From a virus: a DNA stretch of 64,000 bases. A program made the translations under genes and the position numbers. Every line of letters starts with the position of its first letter. Position 1 is the first letter of the stretch. The DNA is taken from positions 1 to 64,000 of the IMG/VR virus record IMGVR_UViG_3300011116_001048; one strand, written 5' to 3'. Of the stretch, positions 2,013 to 58,510 are shown in pieces. Under the pieces are notes generated by a model that saw only the letters and a list, made by a program, of their open reading frames with translations, was not told where the DNA came from and did no database searches.

Positions 2013-3068
2013 ATGAAGATTGAAGATGACATCAAGCTAGATTTTGCAGACGTTCTGATTCGCCCAAAACGCAGCAATCTGGACAGCCGTAACAAGGTTC
2101 AAGTCCACCGACAGTTTAATTTTAAGCTTCCGGATAACAAAGAGTTTAGTTGGACCGGTGTTCCAATTATGGCATCCAATATGGATACGATTGGAACATT
2201 TGTGATGGCTGATGCCATGCATCGCCACGACTCCATGTGTGCTATTCACAAGTATTATAGTGTTGATGAATGGGATCATGAGTTTAGTGGCTGGATGCGC
2301 AATAACTCTGGTCAGTGTAGTGTAGTGTACACCATGGGAATGGGAGACGGTAGCAAGAATTTTGAAGAGATTGATAAGGCTCGTCAAATTCTAAAGAAGC
2401 ATCCTCAGATTAATTTTATCTGTATTGATGTTGCTAACGGTTATACCGAAAAGTTTGTGAATTATGTACAAACAGTGCGTGATCTGTTTCCTGACAAGGT
2501 ACTGATTGCAGGAAATGTGGTTACACGTGAAATGACTGAAGCCCTGATTCTGGCTGGTGCTAATATTGTTAAGATTGGTATTGGTCCCGGATCGGTCTGC
2601 ACGACTCGCAAGGTTGCAGGTGTGGGATATCCGCAACTGTCGTGCATCATGGAGTGTGCTGATGCCGCACACGGGCTGGGTGGTTACGTTCTTTCGGACG
2701 GTGGTTGCACTTGTCCGGGTGATGTAGCCAAGGCATTTGGAGCGGGTGCAGATTTTGTTATGATTGGTGGTATGTTTGCTGGCACGGATGAAGCAGCAGG
2801 TCGGATGACGGATGAGGGTAAGGAGTTCTACGGGATGTCCTCAGCGGCAGCAATGGAAAAGCACTCCGGAGGAGTGGCAACGTATCGTGCAGCAGAAGGA
2901 AAGCGAGTGTTTGTTGAGCCGGTTGGCCCTGTAGACGGCGTTATGCAACAAATTCTTGGTGGTGTTCGTTCTACTTGCACATACGTTGGTGCTGCTCGCC
3001 TCAAGGATCTACCTAAGTGTACCACGTTTGTTCGTGTGAATCGCCAACTTAACAATATCTTTACGTGA
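2013..3068 (+). CDS. guaC: GMP reductase
   Basis: [73 protein letters not shown]; ATG 2013 preferred to the TTG at 1995. Confidence 0.95.
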
Positions 3069-3315: not shown

Positions 3316-3975
3316 ATGAACCCAGTTTTACACGGAATCCAACTAACAGATCTTGTTTACGGTAGTCCTAATGTACCACAAATAAAAAAAATACAAGATC
3401 AAGGAAAGGCTCTTAGGGCACTTTATAACGATCCTGTAACCAAACAACGATTTTTTAATAAACCGTATCCGTCTAACGTTTCGCCTGAAGTTCGTCGTGA
3501 ACTGGAAACTTTACAAAAACAAGTAAAAAATATTAGTGGCCCTGATCTGGAATTTGCAAAACAAAGCGAAAAAGATCATTACGGGATGTGGATACAGATG
3601 CTGTATAATCACGGAATTTCTGTCCAGCGTTCGTGGTTTGAAACTATTACAGACAACACAGACGGGCTGTTATACGCTTTAAAGTACCATTACAATCGTC
3701 CTCGTCCGTTTCAGTTAGGCCACTACCACAAAATCCAAGTTACTCCCACAATCTACACAAACGCCAACAGTCCTGCGTTTCCTTCTGGGCATTCTATGGA
3801 AGCACGATTGTTTGCATTGGTATTATCTCAAAAGCATCCGTTTCTTGCAGATAAAATAATGAATATGAGTGACCGAATTTCTAAATCCAGAATGGATGCG
3901 GGAGTACACTACGAATCAGATCTTGCATTTGGTCACGAAATAGCACAGTGGATATTTTCTACGAAATGTTTTTGA
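3316..3975 (+). CDS. PAP2-family phosphatase / haloperoxidase-fold protein
   Basis: KYHYNRPRP, PAFPSGHS, SRMDAGVHYESD are the three PAP2 motifs. Confidence 0.88.
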   Translation: MNPVLHGIQLTDLVYGSPNVPQIKKIQDQGKALRALYNDPVTKQRFFNKPYPSNVSPEVRRELETLQKQVKNISGPDLEFAKQSEKDHYGMWIQMLYNHGISVQRSWFETITDNTDGLLYALKYHYNRPRPFQLGHYHKIQVTPTIYTNANSPAFPSGHSMEARLFALVLSQKHPFLADKIMNMSDRISKSRMDAGVHYESDLAFGHEIAQWIFSTKCF

Positions 3976-3999
3976 CACCACGTTTTTATGATGTATATT
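3972..3999 (+). promoter_or_regulatory. sigma70-type promoter, 16-nt spacer
   Basis: TTGACA(3972-77)-N16-TATATT(3994-99); ATG 4007 at +8. Confidence 0.75.
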
Positions 4000-4006
4000 G
4001 ATTATT

Positions 4007-4177
4007 ATGCCTAATGCCCCTACTCGTAAAGTTTTTTGGAAGCACCGTAAGCGTAAGAAGAACGCTACTCGTCAGCGTCAAGAGATGATTGCTCAAAACG
4101 CTAAGAAGAAGACCCGCGAAGCTCTGGCCAAGATTGGTCGTCTTCCTAAGATTGCTAGGATTGGTTATGATATTTAA
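4007..4177 (+). CDS. small highly basic protein (56 aa)
   Basis: Hand translation MPNAPTRKVFWKHRKRKKNATRQRQEMIAQNAKKKTREALAKIGRLPKIARIGYDI; below ORF-track cutoff; own promoter; codon usage like highly expressed genes (CGT, AAG, GCT). Confidence 0.75.
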   Translation: MPNAPTRKVFWKHRKRKKNATRQRQEMIAQNAKKKTREALAKIGRLPKIARIGYDI

Positions 4178-4280
4178 TAATATTTTGCATTTTATTATAT
4201 TTTAAAAGCTTTCTGGAGGTGCTTCAACTTCAGCGTTGTCTGTGATTGGGATCTAGCAGAATCGTACCAATAATCCACTA

Positions 4281-4307
4281 AAGCCTCACGTAAAAGTGAG
4301 GTTTTTT
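4281..4307 (+). terminator. rho-independent terminator
   Basis: AAGCCTCAC-GTAAAA-GTGAGGTTT followed by T run. Confidence 0.75.
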
Positions 4308-4318
4308 GTTTGAATTAC

Positions 4319-4346
4319 TTGACACGTGCTTTTTTTGGTGTATATT
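4319..4346 (+). promoter_or_regulatory. sigma70-type promoter, 16-nt spacer (drives tRNAs)
   Basis: TTGACA(4319-24)-N16-TATATT(4341-46) upstream of tRNA-Lys. Confidence 0.75.
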
Positions 4347-4366
4347 ATGGGAGTGACAAGTGAATA

Positions 4367-4439
4367 GCCCTCTTAGCTCAGTTGGTAGAGCAGTTGACTT
4401 TTAATCAATAGGTCGTAGGTTCAATTCCTACAGGGGGCA
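4367..4439 (+). tRNA. tRNA-Lys(UUU)
   Basis: GCCCTCT/AGGGGGC acceptor, loop CT-TTT-AA, TTCAATT T-loop; no encoded CCA. Confidence 0.95.
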
Positions 4440-4443
4440 CTTT

Positions 4444-4516
4444 GGGACGGTAGACCAATGGCAGAGTCAAGACACTTAAAATGTCTGTAGTGTGGGTTCG
4501 AGTCCCACCCGTCCTA
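4444..4516 (+). tRNA. tRNA-Leu(UAA), short variable loop
   Basis: GGGACGG/CCGTCCT acceptor, AGACA-CTTAAAA-TGTCT anticodon arm, 5-nt variable loop, GTGGG-TTCGAGT-CCCAC; no CCA. Confidence 0.9.
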
Positions 4517-4529
4517 CTTAGGAGAAATT

Positions 4530-5861: not shown

Positions 5862-5935
5862 ACACCCGTAACTCAGCTGGACAGAGTAACAGATTTCTAA
5901 TCTGTGGGTCGCTGGTTCGAATCCAGCCGGGTGTG
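5862..5935 (+). tRNA. tRNA-Arg(UCU)
   Basis: ACACCCG/CGGGTGT, ACAGA-TTTCTAA-TCTGT, GCTGG-TTCGAAT-CCAGC; no CCA. Confidence 0.93.
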
Positions 5936-6191: not shown

Positions 6192-6470
6192 ATGATGTCT
6201 AAGTACAAGACTTTTGTTGCAAATGGTGTGCAGCGTCATACTGACGCTCGTAGGCCCAGTATTACAGTTTATCCCGACCCTCTAAACGAAGGAAAGTACG
6301 TTGCGTGTTTTGAAGCGACAGACTGCGATGAACTTGTTAACGGTTATTCGTATAACGAATTACTGTCTATTCGTAATGCTATTAACGATGCACTTACTGA
6401 TATCGATGTTCGTGAAAGTGTAGCAGAACTAAACAAACACGATCCAAGGATTTATCCTTTCAATGATTGA
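6192..6470 (+). CDS. hypothetical protein
   Basis: Tightly packed ORF in operon. Confidence 0.65.
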   Translation: MMSKYKTFVANGVQRHTDARRPSITVYPDPLNEGKYVACFEATDCDELVNGYSYNELLSIRNAINDALTDIDVRESVAELNKHDPRIYPFND

Positions 6471-7455
6471 ACAAGTAGACATTATTTACGGTCTTGCTTG
6501 GGGGGACGAAGGCAAAGGCAAAATTGCTAATGCCATGGCAAAGCATTACGATTACGTTTGCCGTTGGAATGGTGGTCCAAACGCTGGTCATACCGTTTAC
6601 GTGAACGGCCAGAAGCACAAAACCCATATCATTCCTTCCGGTATTTTTGCTGGCAAGAAGTGTGTGATAGGACCGGGGTGTGTTATAAATATTGATAAAT
6701 TCTTTGAAGAAGTGCGTACACTTCGTTCTGCAGGATTTAATACTGATCTTGTAAAGATATCACCTAATGCTCACATCATTACTCAAGAACACATTGAATA
6801 CGATAAGAGAAATCTTGGTCACTTGGGAACAACTGCTCAAGGCATCGCTCCCTGTTATTCCGACAAAATGCTCCGACGAGGCCGACGAGCGATTGAGATG
6901 ATGGATGCCCAGTGGCTCTGGGATGGTGAATTAAACGGTAAAATTTTATGTGAGGGTGCACAGAGTGTATGGCTTGATATTGATCATGGTGATTATCCAT
7001 ACGTTACTAGTAGTACTACGATGCCGTATGGTGCGTGCTCTCTGGGTTTCTCACCCCAAAAGATACGCCGAATCATCGGTGTGGCAAAAGCTTACGACAC
7101 GAAGAGTGGAGTAGATCCCCTATTCCCAACATCTTTGTGGGATGATCCGGTTCTAAACAAAATTATTGAACTGGGTGGCGAATACGGATCTACTACCGGG
7201 CGTAAGCGTTTGGTGAATTGGCTGAATTTAGATAAACTAAAGAAAGCTATACTACTATCCGGTTGCACAGAACTTATCATTAATAAGTACGATATTCTAC
7301 AACAAGTTAATGAATATAAGGTAATACACGGCAACGAAACACAAAATTTTGTAAGTTTTACTGATATGAAACGTTATGTTATGGATACGCTTCTTATGTG
7401 TGCGGGTTCTGCTCTTCACGATATTACTTGGTCTGATAGTCCAGAAAAAATTTAA
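6463..7455 (+). CDS. purA: adenylosuccinate synthetase (short form)
   Basis: GLAWGDEGKGK, GGPNAGHT, HIIPSG, GTTAQGIAPCYSDK, EGAQ, YPYVTSS, EYGSTTGRKR, INKYD. Confidence 0.93.
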   Translation: MIEQVDIIYGLAWGDEGKGKIANAMAKHYDYVCRWNGGPNAGHTVYVNGQKHKTHIIPSGIFAGKKCVIGPGCVINIDKFFEEVRTLRSAGFNTDLVKISPNAHIITQEHIEYDKRNLGHLGTTAQGIAPCYSDKMLRRGRRAIEMMDAQWLWDGELNGKILCEGAQSVWLDIDHGDYPYVTSSTTMPYGACSLGFSPQKIRRIIGVAKAYDTKSGVDPLFPTSLWDDPVLNKIIELGGEYGSTTGRKRLVNWLNLDKLKKAILLSGCTELIINKYDILQQVNEYKVIHGNETQNFVSFTDMKRYVMDTLLMCAGSALHDITWSDSPEKI

Positions 7456-7461
7456 TAGTAA

Positions 7462-7535
7462 TCCCGAATAGCTCAGTTGGTAGTAGCGCGAAGCTGTTAA
7501 CTTCGATGTCACTGGTTCGAGTCCAGTTTCGGGAG
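7462..7535 (+). tRNA. tRNA-Asn(GUU)
   Basis: TCCCGAA/TTCGGGA, CGAAG-CTGTTAA-CTTCG, ACTGG-TTCGAGT-CCAGT; no CCA. Confidence 0.95.
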
Positions 7536-7548
7536 TTTGGAGGTTGAT

Positions 7549-7692
7549 ATGGGCGGTAAACACGATGCAGGAAAAGGTGACCAGTATCGTTCGGTAAATT
7601 GGGAACAGTATTCCAAAAACTGGGACGATATATTTGGTAAAAAGAAAACCAAGAAAAAAGACACCAAAAAGGTTGACTCTAAGAAAAAATAG
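7549..7692 (+). CDS. small basic phage protein (47 aa)
   Basis: GGAGG SD; MGGKHDAGKGDQYRSVNWEQYSKNWDDIFGKKK..., a GKG..R...Y..NWD.IF motif common in small phage proteins; missed by ORF track. Confidence 0.75.
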   Translation: MGGKHDAGKGDQYRSVNWEQYSKNWDDIFGKKKTKKKDTKKVDSKKK

Positions 7693-7700
7693 AGTATAGT
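7673..7700 (+). promoter_or_regulatory. sigma70-type promoter, 16-nt spacer
   Basis: TTGACT(7673-78)-N16-TATAGT(7695-7700); ATG 7707 at +7. Confidence 0.72.
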
Positions 7701-7706
7701 TACAGT

Positions 7707-8078
7707 ATGACCAATACTCTGATCGATTCGTATTTGGAGCAGGCGTTTCCGTTGTGTATGGAACTGCCTCGCCAAAAGAAGCACGTTTCTTTCATTCTCC
7801 ACAAGAACCGAATCGTAGCTACAGGTCGTAATTTCTTCAAAACTCATCCCAAGGCCAAGGTTATTGGTTATCCGTTTGACGAGATGCATTCAGAACTGGA
7901 TGCGTACCGTAAGGTGCCGTACAATCTTCGTAATAAGAAGTTGACGCTTCTCAACGTTCGTTTTAATCGTTTTGGTGAACTTCGTATGGCCAAGCCGTGC
8001 GAACTGTGTCTTCCGTGGTGTCGTGAAATTTTTCATGAAATTAACTACACCACCGATCAGGGAATTATTACTCTATGA
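7707..8078 (+). CDS. cytidine/dCMP deaminase-fold zinc protein
   Basis: H-x-E (MHSELDA) and P-C-x-x-C (KPCELC) zinc ligands; IVATGRN strand. Confidence 0.8.
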   Translation: MTNTLIDSYLEQAFPLCMELPRQKKHVSFILHKNRIVATGRNFFKTHPKAKVIGYPFDEMHSELDAYRKVPYNLRNKKLTLLNVRFNRFGELRMAKPCELCLPWCREIFHEINYTTDQGIITL

Positions 8079-8269
8079 GAAATTGTAAACCTAGTGATGT
8101 GCAAGCCCTAGAAGTTATATGCGGTAATTTACACCAGATAAGCACAGAAATCTCTGTAATAAATGGTAAGTTAAACAAGCTTCGTAAAGAGATTGAAAAT
8201 TACGTAAATCAAGAACAGGAACCAATCGATGTTTCGACTCCACATGGACTTTCCGCTGACAACGCCTGA
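8075..8269 (+). CDS. hypothetical protein (coiled coil)
   Basis: ATGA overlap with upstream stop. Confidence 0.55.
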   Translation: MRNCKPSDVQALEVICGNLHQISTEISVINGKLNKLRKEIENYVNQEQEPIDVSTPHGLSADNA

Positions 8270-8483
8270 AACAGATTCTGCTAATACTTGTAATCGTTTT
8301 GTCGAATTTCTTCAGCAACACAAGGACGTTTTGATTGATATGGGATTTGCTGATATCAATTTTCGCCTTGGTCACGATCAAGATCGTCAAAAGTCAAACT
8401 ATCTGATCAAGAATGAAAACGGGCATGTTGCTAATAAAAAGTCACGAATTAACTTGCTTCCCGCCGAATCTGATGTAGAATAA
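8229..8483 (+). CDS. hypothetical protein
   Basis: ORF filling the gap to tRNA-Ile; exact start uncertain. Confidence 0.55.
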   Translation: MFRLHMDFPLTTPETDSANTCNRFVEFLQQHKDVLIDMGFADINFRLGHDQDRQKSNYLIKNENGHVANKKSRINLLPAESDVE

Positions 8484-8489
8484 GACTAT

Positions 8490-8561
8490 GGGATGCACGT
8501 GTCGGGTGGCACAGGATTGCTTATAACGATCTACCGCAGAGTTCGAGTCTCTGGCATCCTA
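8490..8561 (+). tRNA. tRNA-Ile(UAU), atypical D-arm
   Basis: GGGATGC/GCATCCT, GATTG-CTTATAA-CGATC (anticodon TAT 8522-24), CAGAG-TTCGAGT-CTCTG, discriminator A; position 8 is A and the D-loop is small. Confidence 0.82.
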
Positions 8562-8567
8562 CTACAT

Positions 8568-8765
8568 ATGTACATGAATAAACCCAATCCTCTAGCAGAT
8601 AAAGTGACCAAGTATGTGCTGGAATATCTACTGAATAGATTTGATCTACAACCCGGTGATGTTAATAATATCCGAATGATTATTACCAGATCACTAAACA
8701 AAAACAACAAACAACCAATCGTTCCAGTAATTAAAAAGAAAAAGAACAAAGGCCCCATAGATTAA
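8568..8765 (+). CDS. hypothetical basic protein; stop codon lies inside tRNA-Glu
   Basis: In-frame ATGs at 8568/8574 just after tRNA-Ile; TAA 8763-65. Confidence 0.6.
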   Translation: MYMNKPNPLADKVTKYVLEYLLNRFDLQPGDVNNIRMIITRSLNKNNKQPIVPVIKKKKNKGPID

Positions 8766-8824
8766 CTGGCCAAATCCTCGCCCTTTCACGGCGATGACTG
8801 CGGGTTCGAGTCCCGCTGGGGTCA
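8751..8824 (+). tRNA. tRNA-Glu(UUC)
   Basis: GGCCCCA/TGGGGTC, TCGCC-CTTTCAC-GGCGA, GCGGG-TTCGAGT-CCCGC; no CCA. Confidence 0.95.
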
Positions 8825-8831
8825 CTACATT

Positions 8832-9761
8832 ATGCCTATTCGCAATATCGGTTACGCCTGTCAAAACCTGTCCATCAATGAGAACGTCAAGAAGAAAGAT
8901 TATATTACTTCTGATCGTACTCTCCGTATGTCAGGGTTTAGCCTTGATCGCTGCGGTCAGCTTGCTGCGGTTAATACGCGAGATCTGGTAAAGATCATGG
9001 AATGGAATGCTGATAACGGAATTAAACTATTCCGTGTCGGTAGTGGAATTTTTCCGTTCATGGATCATCCAGAACTAGGATACAAGCTTCATTATCTGGA
9101 CGAAGCCCACCAGAAGCTCATTACAGCCCATATGAACGAGGCTGGCCGTATTGCCCGTGAGGCGGGTATTCGCCTGTCATGCCATCCGGGGCCGTATACG
9201 TGCCTTGCAAGCCCTAATACAGCCATCGTACAAAAGTCTATCATGTGTCTGGAAATGCACCAGCTGATTGGTGACCTGTTGGGTCATGCAGACGACTTTA
9301 ATATTAATATTCACGTTGGTGGTGTGTATGAGGACAAGGCTACTACCGCCAAGCGTTTCTGCGACACGTACAAGATCTTGAACCCCAACCTTCAGCGTCA
9401 ACTCACTGTGGAAAACGATGACAAGGAATCTATGTGGAGTCCCATGGATCTGTACAATATGATTTACTCTGGTTGTGGTGTGCGTCTGGTGTACGATTAC
9501 CATCACCATAGATTTTGTCATAATATGGAAACTGTTGACCGTGCTGTGGAACTGTGTTTTTCCACTTGGCCAGAAGATCAAGTTCCGGACACGCACTATT
9601 CTGAATCTGCGATTGGTAAGCGTCCTCAGGCCCATTCTGATTATATCGAAGGTCCTCTGCCTGTATTCGATACGGACAGAGAATACGATGTTATGCTGGA
9701 GACCAAGGCCAAGGATCTTGCTCTCAAAAAGTACTTGACAGAACACGCGGGTGTGGTATAA
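8832..9761 (+). CDS. uvsE: UV-damage endonuclease
   Basis: IGYAC, IKLFRVGSGIFPF, RLSCHPGPY, NIHVGG, LTVENDD, VYDYHHH, HYSES, HSDYI, MLETKAKDLA. Confidence 0.93.
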   Translation: MPIRNIGYACQNLSINENVKKKDYITSDRTLRMSGFSLDRCGQLAAVNTRDLVKIMEWNADNGIKLFRVGSGIFPFMDHPELGYKLHYLDEAHQKLITAHMNEAGRIAREAGIRLSCHPGPYTCLASPNTAIVQKSIMCLEMHQLIGDLLGHADDFNINIHVGGVYEDKATTAKRFCDTYKILNPNLQRQLTVENDDKESMWSPMDLYNMIYSGCGVRLVYDYHHHRFCHNMETVDRAVELCFSTWPEDQVPDTHYSESAIGKRPQAHSDYIEGPLPVFDTDREYDVMLETKAKDLALKKYLTEHAGVV

Positions 9762-9817
9762 TGGTAGCACGACTGCCTTCCAAGCAGTAGACAAGGGTTC
9801 GATTCCCTTTACCCGCA
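9747..9817 (+). tRNA. tRNA-Gly(UCC)
   Basis: GCGGGTG/TACCCGC, ACTGC-CTTCCAA-GCAGT, AAGGG-TTCGATT-CCCTT; overlaps last 15 nt of uvsE; no CCA. Confidence 0.93.
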
Positions 9818-9819
9818 TT

Positions 9820-10170
9820 ATGAAAAAGTTTAATACATTTAAAATCTGGTTTGGTAAAAAACTGATTGATTGGGGATTTGGTATTCTACTCCGTATGGAC
9901 GACCGTAGTTGGAGTCCTCAACGAGAGTGCTATACAGGATCTATTAAACAGTTTAAATACACTGTTGGTTCGTGGTTAGTAAAACACGGAATGCGTATGG
10001 AAAGTCACGGCTTAAATAAAGTAGGCTGGCCAGGATTTTCAGAATTTAAGTATTACGACAAGAATTTTTATCTAGGTAACAACCCGTACACTCAAAAGTT
10101 TAAGAAAAAGAAGAAGCGCAACAATGACGACGGACCCGACTTTGGAAACTTGTTCAAGGACTGGCAGTGA
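9820..10170 (+). CDS. hypothetical protein
   Basis: ATG 9820 two nt after tRNA-Gly; the longer ORF-track start lies inside the tRNA. Confidence 0.65.
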   Translation: MKKFNTFKIWFGKKLIDWGFGILLRMDDRSWSPQRECYTGSIKQFKYTVGSWLVKHGMRMESHGLNKVGWPGFSEFKYYDKNFYLGNNPYTQKFKKKKKRNNDDGPDFGNLFKDWQ

Positions 10171-10708
10171 ATCACGAAACATCATTGATCACTACCATTA
10201 CTGGAAGCATGAAGCGATTCTCGCAGACCTTGACACACGAGCGAATAACTTCTCTGTTCTTTGCAGCAATCTATATAACGACTTTAACATCGCTACTTGC
10301 ATTAGGAACAGTAACGCTTTTTTGGCTAAGAAAGTGGTTATCTACGGGTCTAAGCAATATGATCGTCGTGGTACTGTTGGTACTCACCACTATGTGCGTA
10401 TGCTACACGCTGGAACGTTTCCGGGGCTGGTGCAAACGCTGGATTCCCTGAGACAAGAGGTAGGGATGCCTCTCCACCTTGTGGCCGTGGATAACGTGCC
10501 AGGAGCCAGTAGGATCGATTCGTACGCGTGGCCCAAGGAGAAGCACGTAGTTATGATGTTTGGTCAGGAACAGGTGGGCTTGCCCGAGGAACTGCTCCGT
10601 ATTGCGGATGATGTAGTGTACATTGCACAATACGGTTCCGTACGTAGTCTAAACGTGGGAACCGCATCGGGAGTCGTGATGTACGATTACTGTGCTAAGG
10701 TTTTGTAA
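10124..10708 (+). CDS. SpoU/TrmH-family RNA 2'-O-methyltransferase
   Basis: DFNIATCIRNSNAF (motif 1), MFGQEQVGL (motif 2), IAQYGSVRSLNVGTASGVVMY (motif 3). Confidence 0.9.
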   Translation: MTTDPTLETCSRTGSESRNIIDHYHYWKHEAILADLDTRANNFSVLCSNLYNDFNIATCIRNSNAFLAKKVVIYGSKQYDRRGTVGTHHYVRMLHAGTFPGLVQTLDSLRQEVGMPLHLVAVDNVPGASRIDSYAWPKEKHVVMMFGQEQVGLPEELLRIADDVVYIAQYGSVRSLNVGTASGVVMYDYCAKVL

Positions 10709-49840: not shown

Positions 49841-50335
49841 ATGACAGCACCATGCAATCGTTCTACCAATCCATTATTAGTAAATTATTTTCAATTTATA
49901 TTGGATCGTGTTCCTAACATGGTTTTCTTTTGTCAGAGTGTAAATTTACCGGGAATTGGATACGGTGTAGAAGAACAGCCAACAACCTTAGGCCATCCTG
50001 TAAAAATTCCAACCGGAGCTTTTCGGTTTGAAGATCTGGAAGTTACGTTTCGTGTAGACGAAAATCTTACCAACTGGAGAGAGCTACACGAATGGATACG
50101 AACAACCGGTAACTATACTGACGATATAGCAACATTACCGTACAATAAAAAAACCTCAGACGCCACATTAATAATCACAAACAGTGCGTTTAATCCAAAA
50201 TATAAAATTCATTTTAAAAATGTGTTTCCGCAGTACATAAGTGGAATTAATTTTACTGTAAACGCTGCTTCATCCACAGAAGTGATTGCTAGTGCTAAGT
50301 TTGCACACACAGGATATACTGTAGAATTAGCTTGA
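49841..50335 (+). CDS. gp3: tail tube terminator gp3
   Basis: N.L..NYF.F...RVP...FFCQ.VNLPG, FEDL.V.F.VDE.L.NW.E...W, SDATL.I. Confidence 0.93.
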   Translation: MTAPCNRSTNPLLVNYFQFILDRVPNMVFFCQSVNLPGIGYGVEEQPTTLGHPVKIPTGAFRFEDLEVTFRVDENLTNWRELHEWIRTTGNYTDDIATLPYNKKTSDATLIITNSAFNPKYKIHFKNVFPQYISGINFTVNAASSTEVIASAKFAHTGYTVELA

Positions 50336-50359
50336 ATTTTTTATAATTTATTGTATAAT
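50332..50359 (+). promoter_or_regulatory. sigma70-type promoter, 16-nt spacer
   Basis: TTGAAT(50332-37)-N16-TATAAT(50354-59); ATG 50366 at +7. Confidence 0.7.
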
Positions 50360-50365
50360 ATGAGT

Positions 50366-50800
50366 ATGAACCTAGATGAATTAAAAAACATGATCAAAAA
50401 AGATCTGGAAATCGACCAAACTGCTTTAGACGCAGAATCGTCCAGAACTCCGCAAATACACAACAAATATCTGATTATGTACATGGATGAGAAGTTAAAA
50501 CTTAAGCGGATGGAAAACGAGTTAGCCGTTCTTCGTCGTAATAAATGGTTATACTATACTGGCCGCATGAGCAAAGAAGAGCTAGACCAGCACGGTTGGG
50601 AGCCGTTTGAACTAAACATCCTCAAGAACGAAGCAGACCAAATGATTGAATCAGATTCAGATTACATTAAAGCATCAGAAAAAGTAAACTTTCAACAAGA
50701 AAAAGTTAACTATCTGGAAGATGTAGTAAAAATTGTTAATAATCGCCAATGGCAGATTCGTTCAATTATAGATTGGCTTAAATTTACCCAAGGGGTTTAA
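50366..50800 (+). CDS. uvsY: recombination mediator UvsY
   Basis: DL.ID...LD.ES..TPQ.HNKY, KW.YYTG, R.W.I...I.W.KF..G. Confidence 0.92.
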   Translation: MNLDELKNMIKKDLEIDQTALDAESSRTPQIHNKYLIMYMDEKLKLKRMENELAVLRRNKWLYYTGRMSKEELDQHGWEPFELNILKNEADQMIESDSDYIKASEKVNFQQEKVNYLEDVVKIVNNRQWQIRSIIDWLKFTQGV

Positions 50801-57330: not shown

Positions 57331-57643
57331 TTTTCCAACAATATTTAAAGTAACAGACGGTTCTGGAAATTGTATACAATACGCCAAAGGTGATGTTGTA
57401 TATAAAAATGGAGAAGCGTATATTGCAAAAGTAATTCCTACACCGTGTCTTTCTCCGGAGCACAAAGCGTCAGGATGGGAACCACTAGCAAGTGAAAGAA
57501 CTGGAACAACAGTAACTTATTACAATTCCACTACCGCACCCGCCAGAGTGGTTCAGGGAGATGAATGGTTCAATCCAAGTACTGGAAGATTGTACAAATA
57601 TATTATTGATTCAAATTCCGAACAATGGGTACAAATCTTTTGA
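57323..57643 (+). CDS. small protein with CBM5/12-like module and GD.W.D fibre motif
   Basis: YAKGDVVYKNGEAYIAK....P.....W; GDEWFNPSTGRLYKY...SEQWVQ. Confidence 0.6.
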   Translation: MANFPTIFKVTDGSGNCIQYAKGDVVYKNGEAYIAKVIPTPCLSPEHKASGWEPLASERTGTTVTYYNSTTAPARVVQGDEWFNPSTGRLYKYIIDSNSEQWVQIF

Positions 57644-57667
57644 CTTTTGTTTTTTCTGTGGTATATT
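57640..57667 (+). promoter_or_regulatory. sigma70-type promoter, 16-nt spacer
   Basis: TTGACT(57640-45)-N16-TATATT(57662-67); rnh ATG at +7. Confidence 0.75.
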
Positions 57668-57673
57668 TAAATC

Positions 57674-58510
57674 ATGTTACTTATTGACAACAACCAGATT
57701 ATTCTGGCTAATATTTTTCAGGCATCCAAAGATGGCGAACCCTTGAATGAAGATTATGTTCGCCATACGGTTCTGAACACGTATCGTAAATATCGCACAA
57801 AGTTTCGCAATTATGGAGAAATGATTCTCTGTAATGACGGAAATAATTATTGGCGCAAAGAGATTTTTCCTTATTATAAGGCAAATCGTAAAAAGCAGCA
57901 AGAATCTAAGAAAGAAGAATGGAAAGCTGTTTTTGATGTACTGGATAATCTAAGAGAAGAAATTAAAGACGTTTTTCCGTATCCTAGCATTCGTATGCAA
58001 GGAGCAGAAGCAGACGATATTATTTACACTCTTTGCAAGACTTATTCGCCATCCGAAAAAGTTCTTATTATTTCTAACGATAAAGACTTTCAACAATTAC
58101 AGATGTTTCCAAATGTAGAGCAATACAGCCCCACTACAGATAAATATCTTACATGTTCCGATCCTCGTGGATTTCTTTTTGAACATGTAATTGGTGGTGA
58201 TTCTAGTGACGGAATTCCTAATATTCTGAGCGATGACGATACCTTTGTGCAAGACGGAAAGCGCCAAACACCATTAACTCAAAAACGAATTACACAAATT
58301 AAAAAGGACGCGGAATTGTCCACATTTTATGAAAATCCTAAATATGTTAGAAACAGTACACTAATTGATATGAGTAATGTACCACAAGATCTACAAGATC
58401 GTATTTTAGAATCTTATCAGTCTCAGAAAGGAAAAGGCAGAACCAAGCTGCTTCAGTATTTTATTGATCATAAACTGAAGAGTCTCATGCCACATTTAGA
58501 GGAGTTTTGA
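57674..58510 (+). CDS. rnh: RNase H / 5'-3' exonuclease (T4 rnh)
   Basis: LIDNNQI, YWRKE.FPYYKANRK, EADDII, IISNDKDF.QLQ, GDSSDGIPN. Confidence 0.95.
   Translation: MLLIDNNQIILANIFQASKDGEPLNEDYVRHTVLNTYRKYRTKFRNYGEMILCNDGNNYWRKEIFPYYKANRKKQQESKKEEWKAVFDVLDNLREEIKDVFPYPSIRMQGAEADDIIYTLCKTYSPSEKVLIISNDKDFQQLQMFPNVEQYSPTTDKYLTCSDPRGFLFEHVIGGDSSDGIPNILSDDDTFVQDGKRQTPLTQKRITQIKKDAELSTFYENPKYVRNSTLIDMSNVPQDLQDRILESYQSQKGKGRTKLLQYFIDHKLKSLMPHLEEF

Follow-up and report, generated by a model that had tools for sequence, protein, structure and literature searches.

Positions 8490–10170 in the sequence of an uncultured, T4-like phage from water raise the question of how protein genes are expressed when they are set flush against tRNAs. 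The sequence analysed here (the window) is the first 64 kb (64,000 nucleotides, nt) of a linear IMG/VR virus record of 118,564 bp (IMGVR_UViG_3300011116_001048). In this region a tRNA-Ile(UAU), a small open reading frame (ORF), a tRNA-Glu, the gene for the UV damage endonuclease UvdE (UvsE), a tRNA-Gly and an ORF of 116 amino acids (aa) stand head to tail, an order that had been proposed from the letters alone (the sequence-only reading) and was borne out by ARAGORN and by the sequence. The answer that we favour, with a probability of about 0.52, is that tRNAs and mRNAs are co-transcribed and that cutting at the tRNA 3′ ends would release near-leaderless mRNAs, which would be translated independently of a Shine–Dalgarno (SD) sequence, the stop codons being borrowed from the tRNAs. 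The elements of the block are:

8490–8561, plus strand: tRNA-Ile(UAU) (ARAGORN 8490–8562), with a G1-U72 pair, an odd D-arm, discriminator A at 8561 and no CCA
8568–8765, plus strand: small conserved protein gene, 63 aa from ATG 8574 (65 aa from 8568); its stop TAA (8763–8765) is nt 13–15 of tRNA-Glu
8751–8824, plus strand: tRNA-Glu(UUC) (ARAGORN 8751–8825), Rfam 62.9 bits, no CCA, followed by CTACATT and ATG
8832–9761, plus strand: UvdE/UvsE UV damage endonuclease, 309 aa; nt 1–15 of tRNA-Gly encode its four C-terminal residues and its stop TAA (9759–9761)
9747–9817, plus strand: tRNA-Gly(UCC), found by ARAGORN and Rfam (67.4 bits), no CCA, followed by TT and ATG
9820–10170, plus strand: conserved protein gene, 116 aa, its ATG 2 nt past the tRNA-Gly discriminator

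tRNAs were called with ARAGORN and then with the Rfam tRNA model (RF00005), and protein families were assigned with Pfam and PHROG. All elements lie on the same strand; the ORFs begin 2, 7 or 6–12 nt downstream of a tRNA, and upstream of the tRNAs there are either 15-nt overlaps or gaps of 6–9 nt. That the small ORF and UvdE each run 15 nt into the next tRNA, stopping at a TAA formed by its nt 13–15, can be read directly from the sequence. The occurrence of exactly 15 nt twice, which had been noticed, is no more than chance, because both tRNAs carry T13-A14-A15 and this stops any ORF that enters in that frame (A14 is near-universal in tRNAs). As to the linkers described between discriminator A and ATG, CTACAT (ATG 8568), CTACATT (ATG 8832) and TT (ATG 9820) are all present, but in the small ORF it is the second ATG (8574), 12 nt from the tRNA, that is conserved as the start, since a related contig (L010) lacks the first one. 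The absence of an SD, described for all three ATGs, holds for ORF 8568 and ORF 9820 but not fully for UvdE, which has a weak GGGGU; calculated duplex energies with the anti-SD are −1.5 kcal/mol after tRNA-Ile, −5.9 kcal/mol for UvdE after tRNA-Glu and +0.3 kcal/mol after tRNA-Gly. Three comparison cases elsewhere in the window, where tRNA-Leu, tRNA-Arg and tRNA-Asn precede a gene, do have clear SDs as had been noticed (−7.3, −9.1 and −10.5 kcal/mol respectively):

4367–4516, plus strand: tRNA-Lys(UUU) and tRNA-Leu(UAA), 3 nt apart, followed by an AGGAG SD and ORF 4530
5862–5935, plus strand: tRNA-Arg(UCU), followed by an AAGGAG SD and ORF 5958
7462–7535, plus strand: tRNA-Asn(GUU), followed by a GGAGG SD and ORF 7549

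UvdE matches PF03851 with 175.2 bits (cut-off 24; E 2.1e-51), its residues 6–273 covering profile positions 1–264 of 275, and residues 6–303 match phrog_8420, so that it is a full-length family member. Neither ORF 8574 nor ORF 9820 matched a Pfam or PHROG family. Among relatives the former is a conserved protein of 61–69 aa and the latter one of 110–116 aa, both being conserved from the first ATG on, down to 56–64% identity. The tRNA-Ile gives no match to RF00005 even at E ≤ 10, and so falls below the Rfam gathering threshold, yet its cloverleaf covaries (15 of 23 pairs changed on both sides across 8 relatives), from which we take it to be real but non-canonical; the G1-U72 pair is kept in all eight and the D-arm is unusual. 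A UAU anticodon for AUA is uncommon in bacteria. The tRNA-Gly of one relative (L069) shows compensatory changes in both the anticodon stem and the T stem.

The record carries the markers of a T4-like myovirus (portal, gp6-like baseplate wedge, large terminase and gp46-like nuclease). Its portal is only 52% identical to that of the nearest cultured phages, which are cyanomyophages, and no near-identical phage record was found in the GenBank phage collection searched. One relative is a complete genome of 125 kb with terminal repeats. UvdE was found on 21 related viral contigs and a homologue of ORF 9820 on 7, four of these being additional; the 13 contigs used for the comparison are those in which UvdE is at least 76% identical or the ORF 9820 homologue is present. 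Four aquatic metagenome runs labelled ‘RNA-Seq’, containing 5–8% of the sampled words, were set aside: they yielded contigs of related phages, are probably DNA and are silent on RNA ends and expression.

Conservation of the 15-nt overlap in relatives, on which the sequence-only reading had staked part of its case, was found at one junction and not at the other. In 13/13 contigs the last 15 nt of UvdE lie within tRNA-Gly, and only TT or TTT separates the end of that tRNA from the next ATG. No homologue of ORF 9820 without a tRNA-Gly ahead of it was found among the 7 loci. At tRNA-Glu the overlap with the small ORF varies: the stop is formed by tRNA nt 13–15 in five contigs and by nt 8–10 (the common U8-A9-G10) in L009, lies 5 nt ahead of the tRNA in L006 and L007, and in four contigs there is no ORF ahead of the tRNA at all. 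Because the stop position varies in this way the overlap appears to be tolerated rather than required, and the stops in tRNA-Glu and tRNA-Gly look borrowed through tight packing. Downstream of tRNA-Glu there is in every case a short, A/U-rich linker whose last three letters before the ATG are ATT (CTACATT, CTAAATT, CTTCATT, CTAAACATT or an 18-nt version), behind which stands UvdE in some contigs and an unrelated 51–53-aa ORF in others. In the lineage of the window (8825–8834) the latter has been lost precisely from ATG to ATG with the tRNA linker intact. Where present, in several relatives, this ORF is coiled-coil-like and, placed after tRNA-Glu, runs into the start of UvdE (L022:3856-4014, L006:3859-4014, L008:123-284).

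Similar junctions recur with other tRNAs. In relatives whose UvdE is 53–60% identical, tRNA-Lys, tRNA-Leu(CAA), tRNA-Tyr and tRNA-Arg are followed after 1–3 nt by the ATG of unrelated ORFs of 65–175 aa (Lys, TT-ATG; Leu(caa), T(T)-ATG; Tyr, T-ATG; Arg, TT-ATG), and further tRNAs there have gaps of 7–17 nt to an ORF that has no SD. SD-followed tRNAs keep a spacer of 12–21 nt. In the more distant relatives, where UvdE lies away from a tRNA or coupled upstream ORF, AGGAG or AAGG precedes its ATG in 9 of 11 loci. As a small control, the cultured cyanomyophage S-RIM8 has eight tRNAs, none with an ORF start less than 20 nt away. The abutment of ATGs to tRNA ends, seen in 13/13 contigs and again with other tRNAs, exceeds chance. 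The searches for tRNA-adjacent starts took in ATG only (not GTG or TTG), and all starts listed are accordingly ATG. None of the seven tRNAs of the 118-kb record encodes CCA, nor was a CCA-adding enzyme domain found there, though the record may not be complete; in the window and the loci surveyed the only tRNA with an encoded CCA is a tRNA-Met in G005, which is followed by a normal SD-led gene. In the window and in loci L002–L052 the discriminator of nearly every tRNA is followed at once by T, TT or C-T, with or without an SD further on, and this may be a shared determinant of 3′ processing.

How the phage group starts its other genes was examined by scoring promoter-like sites out of 12 against the sigma-70 hexamers with a threshold of 10/12. 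The first 10.7 kb of the window form a plus-strand block of small genes and nucleotide-metabolism genes that holds all seven tRNAs of the 118-kb record. Between 1.5 and 12.5 kb the plus strand has seven sites of sigma-70 type with scores of 10–12 out of 12; the spacer is 16 nt in each, and at three of them the ATG that opens an ORF lies 7–8 nt past the −10 (ATG 2013, ATG 4007 and ATG 7707). Over the whole genome 7 of the 65 promoter-like sites have an ORF-opening ATG at +6/+7 past the −10, where the background rate is 0.95% (binomial p = 3e-6). Related loci have 21 ATGs no more than 30 nt from a −10, of which 13 are at +6/+7. The promoter and ATG pairs are at 1979–2013, 3972–4007, 7673–7707, 50332–50366 and 57640–57674 of the window and at 86501–86537 of G000. 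Such spacing is the signature of primary leaderless mRNAs, predicted here from promoter position, and leaderless messages look like the normal style of the group. The leaderless route that the tRNA-adjacent genes would need is thus very probably already in use. Three features bear on the transcript that enters the block:

7673–7700, plus strand: sigma-70-type promoter-like site, TTGACT-N16-TATAGT, with the ATG of ORF 7707 7 nt past the −10
7707–8078, plus strand: 123-aa ORF, predicted to be leaderless from the promoter-ATG spacing
8464–8481, plus strand: weak promoter-like site, TTGCTT-N16-TAGAAT, 8/12 and so under the scan threshold, ending 8 nt before tRNA-Ile

At the 123-aa ORF the promoter-ATG spacing is kept in L002, L004, L005, L006, L010 and L022, whose spacer sequences all differ. 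The TAGAAT before tRNA-Ile keeps its distance even in L006 and L007, despite the differing upstream sequence. The site at 7673–7700 is the probable start of a transcription unit running through the three tRNAs. From 7700 to 9735 on the plus strand there is no spacer, no promoter-like site scoring at least 10/12 and no convincing terminator, and on reading the 20 nt upstream of ATG 8574, ATG 8832 and ATG 9820 no internal promoter was found that would place a transcription start on any of them.

The mechanism we propose is as follows. The region from about 7700 to 10700 would be an early-type transcription unit in which tRNAs and mRNAs share one precursor. Host RNase P would cut at the tRNA 5′ ends and a 3′ endonuclease, proposed to be RNase Z or an equivalent because no tRNA here encodes CCA, would cut at or just past the discriminator. 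The released pieces would begin 2 nt (Gly), 7 nt (Glu) or 6–12 nt (Ile) before the AUG, with no SD, and could be translated by the SD-independent route that seems already to serve genes with an ATG at the transcription start. As long as a folded tRNA stayed attached, its acceptor and T arms would fill the space upstream of the start codon that the ribosome needs, so that excision probably permits initiation. The full-length upstream protein would be made from the uncut precursor, and cutting would end that message. The claim that tRNA maturation yields near-leaderless mRNAs for the downstream genes thus gains from the lack of a promoter or free space between tRNA-Ile and UvdE, from the CCA-less tRNA ends, from an abutment that outlasts a change of gene and from the leaderless promoter signature; it loses ground at ORF 9820, which may have a promoter of its own (below). 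The layout may have an origin in insertion. If the promoter-proximal genes are leaderless as predicted, a tRNA could be inserted harmlessly between promoter and gene if its excision regenerates a short 5′ end, and L010, L065, L067 and L068, in which tRNA-Glu lies with a promoter-like TATAGT box directly before it and an ATG directly after it, fit this suggestion.

Several points weigh against the proposal. ORF 9820 has a route free of tRNA processing through the consensus promoter at 9735–9762, if this is active. UvdE has the weak GGGGU 10 nt upstream of its ATG, inside the 3′ strand of the tRNA-Glu acceptor stem (the −5.9 kcal/mol duplex given above). Compared with the classical leaderless initiation studied in Escherichia coli, the predicted leaders after tRNA-Ile and tRNA-Glu, at 6–12 nt, are long, and would need further trimming or another SD-independent route. 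By a crude gene call a 4-mer SD motif precedes only 43 of 116 genes, and the internal genes ORF 8075 and ORF 8229 have weak SDs only; as many genes of this phage have no SD or a weak one, SD-independent initiation on uncut RNA may be common here. The cleavage steps would depend on the RNases of the host, and while the anatomy, the conservation and the promoter-ATG statistics are observed, co-transcription, the cleavage sites and leaderless translation are deductions from them.

Promoters belonging to the individual genes, which would speak against processing as the source of their mRNAs, were found in part: none scoring at least 10/12 lies between 7700 and 9735, but one stands on the UvdE/tRNA-Gly junction.

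9735–9762, plus strand: perfect consensus promoter with extended −10, TTGACA-N16-TGgTATAAT, 12/12 positions, 16-nt spacer

Its −35 is formed by Leu-Thr codons of UvdE and its −10 by nt 11–16 of tRNA-Gly (D-loop), which contain the UvdE stop codon, and the predicted transcription start is at about 9769, inside the tRNA. The promoter may give ORF 9820 a transcript of its own, as predicted from the match, but it cannot produce tRNA-Gly, which must come from read-through of UvdE. The strongest alternative is that ORF 9820 and the SpoU-family methyltransferase gene behind it are expressed mainly from 9735–9762, with transcripts from about 9769 carrying a leader of about 50 nt of truncated tRNA, and that the abutment of ORF 9820 to tRNA-Gly is incidental. 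We hold this to be a serious possibility, if still a tentative one. All 12 positions match, the TG extension is present and the 16-nt spacer is that of the other strong promoters of the phage; the chance of a perfect −35 at 16–18 nt from a given TATAAT is about 7e-4; and the promoter is invariant in 13/13 related contigs, including L069 with its changed tRNA stems, while neither hexamer occurs in the tRNA-Gly of a distant relative. On the other hand there are only two synonymous sites within TTGACA, too few to prove selection, and the spacer is G+C-rich whereas the other promoters of the phage have T-rich spacers. The leader would still have no SD, so that translation is not accounted for, and nothing is said of ORF 8574 or UvdE; the alternative is in any case compatible with release by tRNA excision and does not exclude it. 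Three stacked constraints, namely the tRNA sequence, the UvdE frame and the promoter spacing, may explain why the junction never varies. A C-to-T change in tRNA-Gly of L003 (4904–4945), found also in L004 and L005, gives an ATG that coincides exactly with the transcription start predicted for this promoter. The L003 ATG would extend the ORF 9820 homologue, whose frame it shares, by 17 aa, but in L004 and L005 the same ATG is out of frame and we treat it as a coincidence.

A second alternative is plain compaction, in which ribosomes initiate without an SD on the uncut precursor at A/U-rich, unstructured starts (S1-type or standby binding) and processing is irrelevant to translation. The linkers and first codons are indeed A/U-rich, many operon-internal genes of the phage have no SD or a weak one, and the stop overlaps vary as neutral packing predicts. 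However, a folded tRNA 2–7 nt before the AUG would have to be melted, as the 30S subunit covers a stretch of mRNA that includes these nucleotides; the abutment, with its TT or TTT, is exact in 13/13 contigs and recurs with five tRNAs before unrelated genes; and the SD-followed tRNAs here retain their 12–21 nt spacer. We therefore consider compaction alone unlikely.

Two further explanations give the cuts a regulatory role. In the broader one the CCA-less tRNAs would act as processing-activated translation gates: a gene behind a tRNA could be translated only once that tRNA is excised, since excision would regenerate the leaderless 5′ end that the group uses at its promoters, the same cut would strip the preceding stop, maturation would set the timing and ratio of the neighbouring proteins, and at the junction the stop codon, the D-loop and the −10 box, which share six bases, would be put to three mutually exclusive uses. 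We regard this as improbable. More doubtful still is the non-stop switch of the sequence-only reading, by which RNase P would deliberately strip the stop of the upstream ORF, the protein would be tagged by tmRNA and destroyed, and tRNA and protein output would be mutually exclusive and regulated. A cut at 8751 or 9747 would mechanically leave ORF 8574 or UvdE without its stop, and the UvdE/tRNA-Gly overlap is invariant in the 13 contigs. Yet the small ORF overlaps tRNA-Glu by 15 nt, by 10 nt or not at all, four relatives having no overlapping ORF there; the invariance at UvdE is explicable by the three stacked constraints, with T13-A14-A15 setting the 15 nt; and any endonucleolytic cut in a polycistronic mRNA makes non-stop ends with no special design. 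We therefore hold the switch to be unlikely. Finally, the idea that the overlaps are meaningless, either because the small ORFs are spurious or because the tRNAs have decayed, is scarcely credible and was rejected, for although neither ORF has a Pfam or PHROG family and the Rfam model misses tRNA-Ile, both ORFs are conserved as proteins, UvdE is full-length and the stems of tRNA-Ile and tRNA-Gly show compensatory changes.

The closest known system to the proposed release of mRNAs by tRNA excision is the tRNA punctuation of animal mitochondria (Ojala, Montoya and Attardi 1981, as reviewed in PMC4394434). In both, tRNAs lie between mRNAs without spacer and coding sequences reach up to or into the next tRNA; in the phage, as in mitochondria, the unit would be polycistronic, cuts by RNase P and RNase Z would make the mRNA ends and the released mRNAs would be almost leaderless. 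The phage differs in being a bacterial virus that needs host enzymes; three of its seven tRNAs are followed by normal SDs and it has multiple sigma-70-type promoters; and its stops lie whole inside the tRNA, whereas mitochondria have partial stops completed by polyadenylation. Punctuation is not the source of nearly all mRNA ends in this phage, which has 7 tRNAs in 118 kb, three of them SD-followed, and many promoters. Leaderless mRNAs are known from bacteria and phages, for instance those of lambda cI and prophage repressors (PMC3848588, PMC4681348). The tRNA-adjacent genes would resemble them in having an AUG at or near the predicted 5′ end and no SD, and in the search for ATG starts all those listed are ATG; the phage group also has ATGs 6–7 nt past a −10; the known leaderless mRNAs, however, are primary with a triphosphate 5′ AUG, whereas the phage end would be tRNA-processed, monophosphate and with 2–12 extra nt. 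Mixed tRNA-mRNA operons also occur in bacteria, an example being thrU-tyrU-glyT-thrT-tufB of E. coli. In Corynebacterium glutamicum eight tRNAs are co-transcribed with protein genes (PMC3890552). There, as would be the case in the phage, tRNAs and protein genes are on one transcript and are parted by RNase P and 3′ processing, but in those operons the downstream gene keeps a normal leader with SD, and they are not known to have a coding sequence that overlaps a tRNA. MazF makes leaderless mRNAs in E. coli (Vesper et al. 2011, as cited in PMC3848588), and in that account does so post-transcriptionally by an endonuclease cut just before the AUG, as is proposed for the phage; as described there, it is a stress toxin cutting at ACA with no tRNA involved, not constitutive tRNA maturation. 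Leaderless mRNAs and mixed tRNA-mRNA operons are thus each known in bacteria, and their combination is not described in the literature searched: no phage leaderless mRNAs made via tRNA processing were found in the full texts searched, only mitochondrial and plastid punctuation and general bacterial transcriptomes.

If the proposal is true, tRNA punctuation is not only organellar but also a strategy of free-living viruses of bacteria, and would offer a compact, portable means of expressing a tRNA and a protein from one transcript. Acquisition of tRNAs into operons, between a promoter and a leaderless gene, would then cost no expression. The annotation of phage tRNA regions would change, with starts flush to tRNAs and stops inside them, and the small ‘filler’ ORFs between phage tRNAs would be real, expressed genes.

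The remaining features concern the ends and the interior of the same plus-strand block.

10124–10708, plus strand: SpoU-family RNA 2′-O-methyltransferase gene (PF00588, E 7.4e-22), the last gene of the plus-strand block

From its annotated ATG, which has no SD, this gene would share 47 nt with ORF 9820, which leaves its true start uncertain; the product could serve to modify the tRNAs of the phage. At 4280–4517 there is a compact unit consisting of a terminator hairpin (4280–4305), an 11/12 promoter (4319–4346) and the tRNA-Lys/tRNA-Leu pair, with its SD-led ORF. Two genes of purine metabolism also lie in the tRNA block. The IMPDH/GMP-reductase-family gene at 2013–3068 has a Pfam match that begins at residue 9, and a shortened adenylosuccinate synthetase of 330 aa is encoded at 6463–7455. 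The latter is labelled PurZ by PHROGs, an identity (and with it a Z-genome) that was rejected as it matches ordinary PurA with E 1e-63 versus 1e-13 to 3e-17 for solved PurZ structures; a route for conversion of GMP to AMP is more likely.

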